A stretch of 64,000 nucleotides of DNA from Flaccisagitta enflata. Lineage: Eukaryota. The translations under genes were made by a program, and so were the position numbers. The stretch is from the NCBI GenBank assembly GCA_965153355.1, contig OZ231126.1, positions 39,556,001 to 39,620,000 of the forward strand, given 5' to 3'. Shown in pieces: positions 8,787 through 63,163 of the stretch (positions are counted from its first letter, which is position 1; each line of letters starts with the position of its first letter). The notes under the pieces were generated by a model that was not told the origin of the DNA, did not search any database, and was given only the letters and a program-made list of their open reading frames with translations.

Positions 8787-10051
8787 TCAAGTTACGACGT
8801 CAGAATGTATTTGTCTTTCAGGCCTTTGATTCGACGTCCATCTTTTTTTCGCCGAAGCGGCGCTTGAGTTTTTTCTTCGCCGATTCAATAGTGTCAAACT
8901 CCTCCTCCTCCTCCTTCCGCTCTTTCTTTGAGTGGCGCCATTATTGTTTCTCCGCGCCACGGACATGGCGTGGAATCGCGCCAAAGATTGTCTAGGAATA
9001 ATGCCGGGGAAAATGTGAACGACGTCTCCTTGATGAAACACGGGATGCCCGTGCATTAACGTCAAGGAGCCCAACGAAGGGTATCGGGATATTGAGGAGG
9101 AAGAGGAGAAGTAGGAGGAGGAAGGGGGTGAGGGAGGTACCGGCTCGTCCGCCGGATAGTCTGGATTACTTCCGGTTACTTCAACGTCACTTAAGTTTTC
9201 TGGCGCGTAAGCGTCCATTTCAGCGCCATCGGGAAATGGCGTGACATTACGAGTGACACGCGCGTGCGCACCGGAAGTAGAATCGGCCGTCGTATCCGGC
9301 GTCGTCGTCGTTGTCGTGAGTTTTTCCATTCCCCAATAGTCTTGATCGGCCCAAACAATTTCCTCGGTCGTCGTTCTCAGTATCGGCGTCGGCGTCGGCT
9401 CAAATTCCCCGGACATTCCTCGAGTGCGTCTTGATGGACGGCCGGAAATGATCGAGGAAGAGGCTCGTCGGGGGTCTCTTCCGGCAACTGCGCCGTAGGG
9501 AATTTCCGGTCTGACGGCGTAATCGATGCGATGCTTCGATGGGAATCTGTGCCGGAAGTGAGGGGACATGTCGGGACCCAAGTGGCCACCACCGCCATCA
9601 CTGCCACCGTCGCGACTACTGCTACCACCACTACCACCGTCACTTTCCCTCAGAGACCGATCCTCGTCTCCGCGGCTATCACTTTCTATAGAAACGTCGT
9701 CGAAGGAAATATTTCTCTCGTTATTACGATCCGTCATTCTGCTGTCTTCTTCTTCTTCTTTTCGTTCTCCCTCGTGAGCAGGAGGAGGAGATGCGGTGGG
9801 AAGCGTAGTGGATGCGATGGGGAGTCGGGGGGATGCGTCAAGTCGGGGACCCGCGTTTTTAACGGAGCTTTTGCTATGATGCGGGGCTGCATTGGCGTCA
9901 TTATTGGAGGAGGCAGAGGAGGAGGAAGAGGAGGAGGAGATTTCATTGTCGTTTTCCAAAGGACTTGGCACGAAAAACATTTCCATGATTCTGGCCAGAA
10001 GGTCGTCTTCTTGTCTATTACCCTGTCCGGGTGCCAGGGCGGTGTTTTTGT
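8787..10051 (-). CDS. CUB/mucin-like gene, terminal coding exon G; - strand only in this window
   Basis: Poly-T + CAG acceptor, phase 1 start (G|AC AAA AAC), 1265 nt to TGA at 8787-8789. Same low-complexity S/T/P/G style as exon E; basic C-terminus (GRRRRRSL...RRRK). Confidence 0.8.
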
Positions 10052-10516
10052 CTGAAAAAAAAAAGGTTTTCACTATATCATCTATTAGAATGAATTTTAC
10101 TTCACCCCAACATACAGTTTTGGTTCTTATGATCTCAGTGAATAGTTTTGTTCACTAGTCAGTCAGTCAGTCAGCCAGTCGCATGTGTGGTTTGTTATCA
10201 CTTCTTCTGACATTACTTATTTTTGTTGTAAATCCACTCGTTTTTTCCCCGCGGAAAACTCACTTTGCATATCTTGAAGCTGCTTCAAAAGTTCTTCCGA
10301 AATTTCTATCGATTCTGAAAGGGAAACAAGGAAAGTAAATTCAATGTCAATTTTATGTTTTGTTTTATTTTATGCAATGTAAATGTAAATCAGTCGTGCA
10401 AGAATGACGCATCAACCATTTTGAATTTCACAGCAAGCCTTTTTTTCGTTTCCACGGTTTTCCCACAGCCTATCCTCACAAAAGACAACCGCCTGCGAAT
10501 GATACAAGGTTGTCAT

Positions 10517-11333
10517 AGGCAATTTCTCCTATAAAGTGGGCTAGCTGAAAAACATGATTTGGCAAGCAAAAAAAACACAGTTTTCTCCCACCAATCATTT
10601 TGTTGATAATAATAGCTGTTCTGACACATCCCCTGGGACCAAGTGTCTAACATACATACTTCATAATCAAGATTTTGATAGATTAGGTGGCCAAAAGTAG
10701 AGCCAAATAAGCCTATTTTCCCTGTCACACTTGTGTCACACTTGTGTCACACTTCATATCTACTATGATAAAGACACCAAGAAATTGTCAAGCCTATCCA
10801 ACTATGAGTCATTTTTGTACCATTACTATCCCTAAAGAAACACCAAAAATTTCATGGGGATCGGTGGTCATTTACTATGGAAAAAGTTTGCTCATAGTTG
10901 ATTTGTCAAATATGAAAAAATATTCAATCTTGATATAGAAATATACTGTACACGAAAAAGCATACTTTTAAGTGTGATGGAAAATTTCTTTTTTTCCCCT
11001 GTTTAATAAAGACATAACCCAGGTTACATGCCAAATTTCAGACCTTCAGGTCTGTTCTAGCCGGAGATATTGATTTTTTATAAAAGTGTCCTATCGAGTT
11101 AACACCTTGTCACACTATGTCACACCGTTTTTCATAAAAAATCATATGATTAAACACAGTTTAAGACTTTAAGTGATTTTTTCAGTGTGACATGAAAAAG
11201 TATCAAATTTTGAGCCTAGAACCCAAATTTCAAGCTGATAGATGAAATTATCATTGAATTATATTATTTTTTTCAATGTTAACTCAATCAGGCACTCAAT
11301 TTTTGCCGGCCCGGTTTATTGGAGAAACTGCCC
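10517..11333. mobile_element. Non-autonomous TIR element, superfamily uncertain
   Basis: Imperfect ~28-bp TIR AGGCAATTTCTCCTATAAAGTGGGC / GCCCGGTTTATTGGAGAAACTGCCC; internal TGTCACAC repeats; TSD unclear. Confidence 0.6.
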
Positions 11334-11402
11334 ATAATGTTTCTTTGCGCCCTTACGTTGTCGTTACTGGCGCTTTTTCTTCATAACCGTTTTTACATTA
11401 AA

Positions 11403-60017: not shown

Positions 60018-60324
60018 GTGAAAGCGGTTAAAATTCCACCGCCTCCTTCAGTCATTCCACTCGCCCAGAAAGACTGTCGGCCCACTTCGCTGTTCAACGG
60101 CCGTCACCGCATCTCACCGACCAGCCTCCAATTCACACCAACTTCGAACCTTCCCGGCTGCTCCCCAGTGTCTTATCGCTCTTTCACGTCCTCTTCCTCT
60201 CCTTCGTCCTCCTCCTCTTCTCCCGTCATATTGATGCACGATCATCATGAGTATAAAATGGAATTTAGCGGCGGCGTTTCGGGAAGACTACAAGCCTGCG
60301 GTTGGGTACTGCGGGCGCTACCTG
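60018..60324 (+). CDS. CUB/mucin-like gene, exon D, + copy (linker and start of a divergent second CUB-like domain)
   Basis: TTCTCAG| acceptor, CCTG|GTGAGT donor. VKAVKIPPPP...QACGWVLRALPG. 307 nt, phase 0 to 1. Confidence 0.85.
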
Positions 60325-60881
60325 GTGAGTATGAGGAAGGTCGGAATGACTGGTACACAGCATACACATATACACTTCACTGTTCAGAGAGAGATACAGA
60401 TTTACACATACGGAATGGGTGGGAGATTGGGTTAAAATAAATACCGCGGACGGTTGGGCAGGAGCAGTAATGCGTAAATCGCTCGGAATTCAAAAATGTG
60501 ACGGACCGACCGACGGACCGACCGACCTACCGACCGACACGGCAAGGTGTAGAGTCGCGTGTCCGCGACCAATAAATACCGTTAAATTTTATTGTGTTGG
60601 ACAACTGATATGGCGATTGTTTCTCAATCGGCAGCATTGATCATCTGAATGGAGCAAAAAACAAAGAACAGCAAACAAACAAAATAAAATCACATCGGTA
60701 AACAGATTACAATTGACTTAAGAGAAGTCCTATGAAAAACCAAATTGAGCACAAATGGGCATTTCACAACTGAGCTAAATGCAGCATTGATTTGCTTGCC
60801 TTTTGCCTCTCTCCGATGAAACAGGTCAAAATTGCAAAAAAAAAAAGGAAAAAGTGAAAGAAACATTTTTTTTCATTTCAG

Positions 60882-62555
60882 GTCGCAATATCACGATACG
60901 GTTTGAGTCGCTTCACTTCCGTCGACCCAATGGAACTTCCTGTAGAGATGGACTCCGTTTTTCCAGTGATAATTGCACGGCTCTCCCACCTCTATCGTCC
61001 CATCGAGGATCCGGAAGCATTCGCGGCGGCAGCAGCGGCAGTAGCAGCAGCAGGTCGGCGGAGCGGAGAGCGCCTGTGACTATCTGTGGACGTCGAAAAC
61101 CCAATCCAATCGTTTTTGATAACTTTGTCAAGGTTGAGGCCGTTTTGGCTCACTTTCGAAAACAAAACTCCCATTTCCGAATCGTCGCCGTTGCGGCGGA
61201 AAAGTCCGTCGGTGAAAGTGGTGGTAGAGGAGGAGGAAGAGGAGGAGGAGGAGGAAGGGGAAATGGAGGGAAAGGAGGAAGAGGAAACAATCCCACCCCA
61301 CGGCCAGTGATGCCCCCTTTCCCTTCAATCGCTGGAGCGTCTGAGGGAGGTGATGCAGTGATTATCGACGATACTGCGTTGACGGATGCATCATCATTAT
61401 CAACGGCAGAACCTCAAATTATGACAACAACAACTGCGACAACTACAACAACTTCCCCGCAACAAGTATCAACGATGGAGCAGCGGGAACTCGTGCCAGT
61501 GCAACAAGAATTCGTGCCAGTGCAACAGGAATTCGTGCCAGTGCAGCAGAAATTCGTTCCGCAGCCAGTGACTGTACAACCAGATGCTGTCGAGCCAGAG
61601 GAAGCAATTTTTAGGGGTCCTTCGAAAGGACCCATCGAAGGCTTGGGCAGAGTGATACTCACAACCACATTGGCCGCTAGACTGGCTTCTTCCTCTTCTC
61701 CTTCACCTCCTCCTCCTTCTTCATCATCACCCCCATCGTCTCCAACTGTGTCCTACTCAACAACCTTGTCCTCACCTTCCTCGACAACGTCGACGATCTC
61801 CGCGCAAACAACGCGGTCCATGATCCAGAGTGAAGCGTCAGCGACCTCTTATCCAACGACGCGGAAGCCGCAACATGAACTTCAACCTCCGCAACCACGA
61901 CAACAACAACAACAACAAAGGACTCCTTCTACGATGGAGATTATTAAAAACTACGTCAAGAACATACTTAAGGGCGGCGCTGAGGAGGAGGCGCAACTCC
62001 AAGTCGCCGCCGACGCCGCCGATGACGCCATCGCCGGCAAATCTCCGGCTTCGGCGAATTCTTCTTCCACGATCAACTTCAATCGGCAGAATACGACGCA
62101 AAAAATGGCGCAATCGCCCAGGACGGCGCCCTCGACGCCGTTATTGACCAAAGAGAGCCAAACTTCTTCTACGACGTTGTCATCGACGTTCGACGAGGAA
62201 GCGGATGGCTCTAAGACGCCTCAAGGAGCATCCACAACGCAAGAAACGACAACAACAATAACAAAGGCGCCAACAACGACAATAACAATGGCGCCAACAA
62301 CGACAACAGACAAAAGCCCAGTATATGATTCCTTCATCGTTCAAATCGACAGCAGCAACAACGACGACCATGACTGGCCGGAGGATTGGGGAAATTGGGG
62401 GGAAGAAGGGGAAGAAGAGCAGGTGTACGACGAAGAGACGGAGGGAACTCAAACTTCTTCTTCTTCTTCTTCTTCTTCTTCTTCTTCTTCCTCATCCGCC
62501 ACCAAAACGTTGGTTCAACCACCCACGACGGCCCAGAAAAAAATAAACCAACCAA
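60882..62555 (+). CDS. CUB/mucin-like gene, exon E, + copy (rest of CUB-like domain 2, Gly-rich and Thr/Ser/Pro-rich region)
   Basis: TTTCAG| acceptor, CCAA|GTAAGT donor. 1674 nt open, phase 1 to 1. RNITIRFESL...SCRDGL...TICGRRKP followed by long low-complexity T/S/P/E tracts. Confidence 0.88.
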
Positions 62556-63163
62556 GTAAGTTTTTTTCTTTATTTCGATAGATTCTTTTTAAAAAAATTT
62601 CATCTTTTTTGGTCAATTTTTATCAGTATTATTGAATTCTTTGCCTTATTTCATCAGCATCTTCAAGACTTGTTAATATAATTCTCATATCCAAATACTA
62701 CCATCATCATCATCATCATCATCATCATCATCATCATCATCATCATCATCATCATCATCATCATCATCATCATCATCATCTTCATTATCATCATCATCAT
62801 CATTTTGTTTTTGCGGTTTCTCTGCCCTTCTCCAATCTTAATCACTTTAAAATCTTTTTTTTTTCTTTGCTTAGACAAACAAATATGAAATTCCGCGAAA
62901 CGAGAAAAAGACAGAGAGATAGCAAAGAATCTTTCATTTTTTGCTACGTTTTCAAATTTCATCTCATTTCTTTTTCTTTCTTTTTTCTCTCCTTTTCTTT
63001 TTTATTTCATGTCTGACATTTATATTGACACACATTTAAAACGTTTCATTTCGTTTCATTGAGTCCTCGACCTTAGCTGCTTTTGACATACATCAGATTG
63101 AGTGAATAGATCTAGTTACCATTTTTTTGGTTTTCTCCTGCGTAGATCATTACATGAGATAAC

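Follow-up and report, generated by a model that had tools for sequence, protein, structure and literature searches.

The 64,000-nt stretch of Flaccisagitta enflata DNA analyzed here (the window) is gap-free, with zero N, and contains seven putative exons, A to G, of a CUB/mucin-like gene that are distributed over both strands around a 38-kb segment flanked by the two arms of a long inverted repeat (Table 1). The presence of such arms, which had been predicted from the sequence by eye, was confirmed by blastn: 15681-20302 pairs with 63163-58533 in one alignment of 4635 columns at 99.57% identity (3 mismatches, 5 gap openings), into which all six collinear inverted blocks seen in the initial scan are fused. 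In a MAFFT alignment, the arms differ at 20 columns, which correspond to 8 events (3 substitutions and 5 indels), all 8 of them outside exons; counting substituted sites, the arms are about 99.9% alike. No other long inverted pair occurs in the window. The arms consist of the exons and introns of one gene, and the duplicated sequence is unique genic DNA and not a transposon. The repeat has sharp ends at all four edges, since self-BLAST of the window revealed no further similarity among the four arm flanks; nor did it reveal any between the segment at 20303-58532 and the outer flanks. Two of the edges keep the continuity of the gene, the inner edge of the right arm leading via an intron back to exons B and A and the outer edge of the left arm leading to exons F and G, and the other two adjoin unrelated sequence.

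Table 1. Features of the split CUB/mucin-like locus (positions in the window; exons in order of the joined gene model)
Feature	Position	Strand	Remarks
Left arm	15681-20302	-	Carries exons C-D-E; blastn, MAFFT, tblastn
Unique segment between arms (candidate inverted segment)	20303-58532		38,230 nt; self-BLAST, in-silico flip
Right arm	58533-63163	+	Carries exons C-D-E; blastn, MAFFT
Exon A	39476-39638	+	163 nt; phase 1 start; ends with N-terminal CUB-like motif (by eye)
Exon B	40999-41087	+	89 nt; CUB profile 26-49 (PF00431), 14.7 bits, E 0.039
Exon C, left copy	18945-19134	-	tblastn, two copies
Exon C, right copy	59712-59901	+	tblastn, two copies
Exon D, left copy	18522-18828	-	tblastn, two copies
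Exon D, right copy	60018-60324	+	tblastn, two copies
Exon E, left copy	16288-17961	-	tblastn, two copies
Exon E, right copy	60882-62555	+	tblastn, two copies
Exon F	11604-11798	-	195 nt; AG acceptor, GT donor; phase suits both E and G
Exon G	8787-10051	-	1265 nt including stop; strong acceptor; AATAAA ~560 nt downstream (at 8225)
Reverse-transcriptase-like fragment	63164-63646	+	Starts exactly at outer edge of right arm

Searches of the window with the exon translations (tblastn) matched C, D, and E twice each at 100% identity, in both arms as the original prediction had it, and the left and right copies are letter-identical. The remaining exons were each found in a single place: A at 39477-39638 (+), B at 40999-41085 (+), F at 11796-11605 (-), and G at 10049-8787 (-). 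This agrees with the earlier reading, in which A and B lay once each on the + strand between the arms and F and G once each on the - strand to the left of the left arm. As assembled, the + strand thus carries a 5' piece, A-B-C-D-E, which runs into foreign sequence, and the - strand carries a 3' piece, C-D-E-F-G, without its 5' exons; no promoter or 5' exon was identified for this - strand unit. Reading through the E donor (a consensus GTAAGT) in the right arm leads to the predicted stop at 62579-62581, as ORF reading showed, and no polyA signal follows that stop within the arm.

The acceptors of the joined model are all pyrimidine-rich followed by AG, and the donors are all GTAAG, GTGAG, or GTAAT. 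The predicted exon lengths (163+89+190+307+1674+195+1265) do add up to 3883 nt with matched junction phases, and the frame that opens at the second base of the A-G join has 1294 codons, its sole stop being terminal. The proposed single frame of ~1293 codons is therefore sound as an open frame (1294 codons with the stop) but not as a whole protein, the 5' end being incomplete (phase 1, no ATG): exon A has no in-frame Met/ATG, so the gene model has no start, and a scan of 20303-39475 on the + strand gave no convincing signal-peptide exon. When 20303-58532 is inverted in silico, exons A, B, C, D, E, F, and G become collinear on the - strand, just as had been expected of a single exchange between the arms.

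When the exons were queried one by one, Pfam returned CUB matches only for B (profile 26-49, 14.7 bits) and C (profile 51-108, 20.2 bits), each piece lying below the curated PF00431 cut-off of 21.4 bits. The two pieces are consecutive in the register of the profile, which indicates that B joins C, and a spliced B+C domain would probably pass the cut-off that the separately scored pieces miss. Exon A alone had no Pfam CUB match. The first CUB domain (CUB1) had been described as completed by the joining of A and B to C; Pfam upholds the B-C register, and the share of A is suggested by its motif. PDB matches to the CUB domains of MASP were weak (E 0.25-0.9). A second CUB domain, proposed across D and E, did not hold up, being undetected by Pfam and having an alignment to CUB1 whose score was reached by 54 of 300 shuffles.

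Exons F and G have the appearance of genuine downstream exons. Exon F stands out as an isolated GC peak (0.57) amid AT-rich introns (0.35-0.36), and exon G, whose strong acceptor implies that it needs upstream exons, has conserved counterparts among environmental sequences, with 96% and 48% protein identity, the latter in a second lineage. Environmental gene calls for G begin at a Met inside the exon, a residue with which a Met of the 48% homologue aligns; a signal peptide belonging to G itself was not found. The compositions of E, F, and G are alike (Ser/Thr/Gly/acidic, with Thr runs) and would suit an extracellular protein. None of the three has a Pfam family, database searches for proteins with F or the tail of E returned nothing, and the databases yielded no transcript-derived protein in which E-F-G or B-C are joined. 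Both of the downstream junctions, E-F and F-G, are accordingly putative, predicted from phase, splice sites, GC content, and composition.

The sequence that abuts the right arm contains an ORF (63173-63646) of 157 codons that is truncated at both ends and followed by AT-rich sequence in which no frame continues it. Penelope-like elements (PLEs) encode a PLE-type reverse transcriptase, in most cases together with a GIY-YIG endonuclease. The nearest Atlas clusters of the ORF are labeled "Reverse transcriptase (Fragment)"/DUF8422 (score 0.95), none of them PLE-specific, and its 157 codons have no Pfam match. What had been called a PLE fragment is a reverse-transcriptase-like fragment, for which PLE is a candidate label. 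Its double truncation and missing continuation make it look like old resident DNA at a breakpoint and not like a young insertion.

The explanation that we favor, holding it with about as much belief as doubt, is that the locus results from one recent germline inversion of ~38 kb, one of whose breakpoints fell within a secreted-type CUB/mucin-like gene. Before the inversion, all of this gene would have been on the - strand, arranged as G-F-E-D-C-[18.6-kb intron]-B-A. One break would have been staggered by 4.6 kb around C-D-E, and the other would have occurred at what is now the 20303/63164 pair; fill-in and end joining would then have left the segment inverted with an inverted copy of C-D-E at each end, making the repeat a by-product of the rearrangement and not a device. 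Each copy has one ancestral and one novel junction, as the staggered-break model predicts. A simple duplicative insertion would give both ancestral junctions to one copy. Because the window is without N, the orientation is not a scaffolding guess; among the environmental contigs, none spans an arm edge. This ancestral order and mechanism are what the sequence of the locus suggests. Divergence between the arms (3 substitutions in 4.6 kb) is much lower than that of G from its environmental variants (96% protein identity), which would fit a very young event or gene conversion and would equally fit an assembly unable to separate the arms.

With arms 4.6 kb long and about 99.9% alike, the segment can be flipped back: nonallelic homologous recombination could reverse it, which would make the gene whole and leave one C-D-E behind as a stray fragment. 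The population may therefore carry the two orientations side by side, as a passive polymorphism and not a regulated switch. A bolder version, which we regard as rather unlikely, is that flipping recurs in the wild, so that a conserved, secreted CUB/mucin-like gene segregates as "whole" and "split" alleles, the split allele giving a truncated A-E CUB protein and the exons being kept identical by gene conversion or by selection for reversibility; bolder still would be trans-splicing of the half-transcripts.

Among the competing explanations, a mis-oriented assembly is unlikely but is the one we take most seriously. In the true order the 38-kb segment would be reversed, which would make the gene whole on the - strand and leave the right arm as a stray inverted C-D-E; possibly the assembler traversed the repeat along the wrong path, or picked one of the paths present in a sample that was heterozygous or pooled. 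The flipped order is that of a collinear A-G gene, in which G is conserved and every exon is open as in a working gene, and one would expect most individuals to have an intact copy of a gene whose last exon is conserved in a relative, which favors either mis-orientation in the assembly or an allele that is heterozygous or rare. The arms are moreover nearly identical, with ~2 kb that lack any distinguishing site, and the junction words are the same in both orientations. Against this, the window is gap-free and the assembler kept apart two arms with 8 small differences; typical long reads exceed the 4.6 kb of an arm, although the read type for this assembly may differ; and a prior inverted duplicative insertion would be required to make the stray arm. 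Mis-orientation had been listed in the original prediction among mundane alternatives together with a set of F and G exons beyond 64000, and both keep some probability, whereas a haplotype-duplicated assembly, also listed, is unlikely because similarity stops abruptly at each of the four arm edges. The second of these would be a larger inverted duplication, in which a complete + strand gene has its own E-F intron, F, and G beyond 64000, the left C-D-E-F-G is a 5'-truncated duplicate, and homology to the left side is broken at 63164 by inserted sequence. The break at 63163/63164 does coincide exactly with the start of the retroelement-like fragment, and the window stops 837 nt past it, so resumed homology would be out of sight. 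We nevertheless find this explanation decidedly unlikely, for a doubly truncated ORF of 157 codons is unlike a young insertion in a duplicate that is 99.9% identical, and the inner edge is equally sharp with no element there.

It is more improbable still that the gene is not split at all, with F and G in another transcription unit, or E terminal, and the left arm a partial duplicate upstream of an unrelated gene. The lack of a Pfam family for E, F, and G and of any protein found to join them, the environmental calls for G that start at an internal Met shared with the 48% homologue, and the one-in-three chance of a phase match at each junction would all be compatible with separate units. However, E has a consensus donor and, past its read-through stop, no polyA signal in the arm, whereas AATAAA lies 560 nt after the stop of G; F and G are open and have good acceptors, which call for upstream - strand exons, the nearest of which are E, D, and C; and the shared composition of E, F, and G, together with the absence of a signal peptide proper to G, points the same way. 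The least probable explanation is a device with a function, whether a 38-kb flip-flop, regulated or somatic, that toggles full-length and truncated products or the trans-splicing of transcripts from the two strands into one mRNA. Its appeal is one of geometry, a single exchange restoring the gene with all exons intact, and 8 of the 8 arm differences avoid exons (P ~0.006 if uniform along the arm); however, 5 of these 8 are indels, and P rises to ~0.15 when the 3 substitutions are taken by themselves. Pfam matched no recombinase in any of 16 ORF translations scanned, a subset of the ORFs of the window, the arms are long gene fragments and not short recombination sites, and the - strand unit is the one that has no identified promoter or 5' exon. 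Programmed inversion is not known for any nuclear gene of an animal. In trans-splicing of Drosophila mod(mdg4), exons on opposite strands are joined in demonstrated mRNAs, with no duplicated exon block or inverted repeat. The Flaccisagitta locus likewise has one apparent coding frame with exons on both strands, but here C-D-E is duplicated as an overlap, and the joining is predicted from genomic sequence. With no recombinase among those 16 ORFs and no protein joining E-F-G or B-C, the switch or trans-spliced locus that headlined the original prediction is left without support; its geometry stands, and the interpretation it overlooked was a single staggered-break inversion. The arrangement resembles what a recent inversion, itself a familiar kind of rearrangement, would leave behind more than it does a designed switch.

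Should the assembled order be real, the locus offers a clean and very young example, outside flies and mammals, of a gene-cutting inversion with a self-duplicated breakpoint, in which both halves are undecayed and homologous recombination is a ready route back. If instead the assembly is wrong here, annotation would mistake the gene for two fragments. In neither case does the locus indicate a new mechanism; it adds one more example to a familiar class of rearrangements, and repeat-flanked loci of this sort could both gauge the frequency of natural flips and serve as test cases for assembly quality.

Close parallels come from the Drosophila melanogaster group, for which Ranz et al. 2007 (PMC1885836) describe inversions with inverted duplications at their breakpoints and explain them by a staggered-break model (isochromatid or chromatid). 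Some cases are duplicated at one breakpoint only, which they also attribute to staggered breaks, and the D. yakuba duplications they report are up to 1.9 kb aligned, with ~88% identity on average. As in those inversions, ancestrally unique genic sequence lies inverted at each end of our segment, a single breakpoint is duplicated, each copy has its old neighbor on one side and a new one on the other, and a gene is cut. In contrast, the duplication here is 4.6 kb long and its copies are nearly identical. The ancestral order in Flaccisagitta is, in addition, proposed from a single assembly.

Human recurrent inversions via inverted repeats, such as those at F8 int22h and FLNA-EMD, offer a second comparison. 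Highly identical inverted repeats drive recurrent inversion according to Giner-Delgado et al. 2019 (PMC6748972), where HsInv0030 exchanges the first exons and promoters of CTRB1 and CTRB2. There, both orientations have been genotyped in many people and two complete genes are swapped, whereas here one assembled orientation is known and the alternatives are a whole gene and two partial genes. Common to both are near-identical, exon-bearing repeats of kilobase scale around a segment of tens of kilobases, with an exchange that re-pairs 5' and 3' parts. Gene-pseudogene pairs in opposite orientation likewise allow disruptive inversions (PMC12632684). Their setting is human disease, and in Flaccisagitta the assembled state is already broken, but in both a nearby partial inverted copy of the gene is placed such that homologous exchange can break or restore it.

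The exon and repeat structure described in the original prediction, in which a CUB/mucin-like gene of seven exons (A to G) is divided between the two strands around a long inverted repeat, proved accurate, with blastn, tblastn, splice-site, and frame checks all in agreement. In all acceptors the AG comes after a pyrimidine tract; all donors read GTAAG, GTGAG, or GTAAT. Joined in order, the exons amount to 3883 nt and, read from the second base, yield 1294 codons with a sole, terminal stop; the stop codon reported for read-through of the exon E donor was found again at 62579-62581. 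GC content is 0.39 to 0.57 in the exons versus 0.35 to 0.37 in the three long introns, with exon F forming an isolated GC peak. The left and right copies of exons C, D, and E are letter-identical.

Exon positions from a tblastn search of the window with the translation of each of the seven exons
Exon	Copy	Coordinates	Strand	tblastn result
A		39477-39638	+	single match
B		40999-41085	+	single match
C	right	59712-59901	+	100% identity
C	left	18945-19134	-	100% identity
D	right	60018-60324	+	100% identity
D	left	18522-18828	-	100% identity
E	right	60882-62555	+	100% identity
E	left	16288-17961	-	100% identity
F		11796-11605	-	single match
G		10049-8787	-	single match; exon span 8787-10051

The sole long inverted repeat in the window is a single pair of arms, at 15681-20302 and 58533-63163. 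Six collinear blocks are merged by blastn into one alignment of the arms over 4635 columns (99.57% identity; 3 mismatches, 5 gap openings). MAFFT resolves the 20 differing columns into eight events, namely three substitutions and five indels of 1 to 10 nt each. All eight are nonexonic, with exons making up 47% of the arm and nonexonic sequence 53%. This placement has a P of ~0.006 if events fall uniformly (~0.15 for the three substitutions alone), and several of the indels lie in intronic runs prone to mutation or error; we do not read selection into it. Exon E contains many codon runs in which length variation would be expected, yet its arm copies do not differ. Self-BLAST of the window found no further mutual similarity between the sequences flanking the arms, so the repeat boundary is sharp at all four edges. 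A haplotype duplicate left in the assembly is unlikely, because homology does not extend past any of these edges. All other self-BLAST matches come from a 66-nt satellite or from dispersed repeats of short length.

The position of the arm edges is informative about how this arrangement may have arisen. The inner edge of the right arm lies within the intron toward B and A, the outer edge of the left arm lies within the intron toward F and G, and the remaining two edges (left inner and right outer) adjoin unrelated sequence. Each C-D-E copy thus retains its old neighbor on one side only. Simple duplicative insertion is disfavored, since one copy would then have kept both old neighbors and the gene would be intact. 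The most economical explanation, to which we would give an even chance, is that the gene was split by a recent inversion that duplicated one of its breakpoints. The ancestral order would have been G-F-[E-D-C]-intron-B-A-upstream, then the site of a second break, then the right flank. Two breaks flanking the bracketed exons would represent one breakpoint staggered over 4.6 kb, and fill-in and end joining would then produce the assembled order, with a C-D-E copy at each end. Ranz et al. (PMC1885836) describe twelve inversion cases duplicated at just one breakpoint, and it is in this single duplication and the proposed staggered breaks that the Drosophila inversions resemble the present case. The type of rearrangement is already known, and this locus adds one more instance. 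Flipping the 38-kb segment between the arms (20303-58532) in silico places A, B, C, D, E, F, and G in collinear order on the minus strand, which bears out the earlier inference that such an inversion would give a contiguous gene. The equal length of the B-C intron in the two orientations is trivial geometry and not notable.

A mis-oriented assembly is the main rival and ranks next after inversion. It draws support from the junction words, all of which the two orientations have in common, and from ~2 kb of arm in which MAFFT finds no distinguishing site; the sequence is nevertheless gap-free, with no N in the window, and keeps the arms distinct, and we regard such an error as unlikely while giving it some weight. 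A second rival, which we consider improbable, is a larger duplication in which F and G were copied again and lie beyond position 64000, behind inserted sequence. What begins at the right arm edge is a reverse-transcriptase-like ORF of 157 codons that ends at ~63646 and has no continuation past that point in any frame. Truncation at both ends speaks against a young insertion, and hence against this rival, but is not decisive. The original prediction had called this sequence a PLE fragment; the reverse-transcriptase-like ORF at the arm edge is indeed there, but the more specific label is less well upheld, as the ORF is seen only as a fragment whose closest Atlas clusters are themselves reverse-transcriptase fragments.

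After the proposed inversion, the arms, as inverted copies of 4.6 kb that are almost identical, would be a substrate for nonallelic homologous recombination. As described in a study of human inversions (PMC6748972), those with highly identical inverted repeats recur, and some, such as HsInv0030 at CTRB1/CTRB2, swap exons and promoters between genes. Given the suitability of the arms and these human precedents, a passive polymorphism between a "split" allele and a "whole plus stray fragment" allele is plausible. This is distinct from a regulated switch. The flip-flop switch originally proposed found no support: Pfam matched none of 16 scanned ORFs to a recombinase, and there are no short recombination sites. 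To our knowledge, there is no precedent for a regulated inversion switch in nuclear animal genes. The switch and trans-splicing readings are both unsupported, and we consider them very improbable.

Indirect evidence favors exons F and G being the 3' end of the same gene as the other exons. The exon E donor is a consensus site, phases are compatible at E-F and F-G, no polyadenylation signal occurs between the E read-through stop and the arm end, and an AATAAA lies ~560 nt past the G stop. Both F and G begin at good acceptors and so need upstream minus-strand exons, the nearest of which are E, D, and C; their composition also resembles that of E. Exon G found two matches among 1.84 billion cluster representatives, 96% and 48% identical, the latter having long invariant blocks in common with G. 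These matches show that exon G is a conserved, real coding exon. Both relatives lie on short ENA metagenome contigs (≤1.7 kb) that cover exon G only and are therefore uninformative about its splice partner. Neither Pfam nor Atlas assigned exon G to a family, the Atlas search giving no usable match. Searches for a spliced form gave weak negatives with exon E (0 of 8000 candidates scored among longer proteins), exon F (0 of 33 among longer proteins), and the last 151 residues of E (0 of 244 among proteins of similar length). No related locus was confirmed in JGI metagenome contigs, either among 109 pattern matches to exon E or among 41 matches from the exon G alignment. The C-terminal part of G contains a block of ~25 residues that is near-invariant between the window and the 48% environmental homolog. 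After it come a run of Arg and another basic cluster; the block might represent a processed peptide or serve as a binding motif.

At the other end of the gene, exon A starts in phase 1 with no in-frame Met, and the model therefore lacks one or more 5' exons. Scanning the plus strand of 20303-39475 for a signal-peptide exon (Met, hydrophobic stretch, and phase-1 donor) gave three weak candidate rows from two start sites, none convincing. The CUB domain said to be completed by joining A and B to C was recovered in part. Pfam detects it in B and C only (profile positions 26-49 at 14.7 bits and 51-108 at 20.2 bits), each piece individually below the cutoff of 21.4 bits. Because the two profile ranges are consecutive, they are good evidence for a B-C splice. 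For A, only visual inspection suggests that its C-terminal residues resemble a CUB domain start. The second CUB proposed across D/E is unsupported, with no Pfam detection and an alignment score to the first CUB of 36 that was reached by 54 of 300 shuffles (mean 31.3, SD 4.9). The joined model is rich in Ser, Pro, Thr, and Gly and has no transmembrane segment (best 19-residue Kyte-Doolittle mean, 0.93).

Of 23 sequencing runs listed, 19 contain part of 8787-18100; 4 are recorded as RNA. At least half of the sampled words of this region are present in just one run, the shares being 0.63 and 0.46 in DNA runs, 0.21 to 0.34 in three runs labeled marine metagenome, and 0.05 to 0.18 in the others; we draw no habitat or expression inference from them.

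Several other features were observed around the gene. The 18.6-kb B-C intron holds two long minus-strand ORFs, at 47877-48617 (247 codons; Pfam matches generic coiled-coil only, under cutoffs) and 49885-50448 (188 codons), which may represent a nested opposite-strand gene that the proposed inversion would have re-oriented as well. Between the arms, a satellite array at 24924-29122 comprises ~65 copies of a 66-nt unit (76% matches), with a 196-nt higher-order period and strongly negative GC skew. A dispersed repeat of ~130 to 160 nt (84 to 93% identity) occurs at 15216-15368, 18265-18401, 35588-35745, and 60445-60577, each arm carrying one copy in its D-E intron. No tRNA was found by ARAGORN in the window. 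A second, older inverted pair of ~600 nt (1656-2234 versus 4711-5296; 76% identity) lies left of the gene. Of the 84 pairs detected as "inverted repeats" in the window, many stem from low-complexity tetranucleotide-type arrays on opposite strands (12627-12974 and 37602-37909), which are unrelated to the arms.
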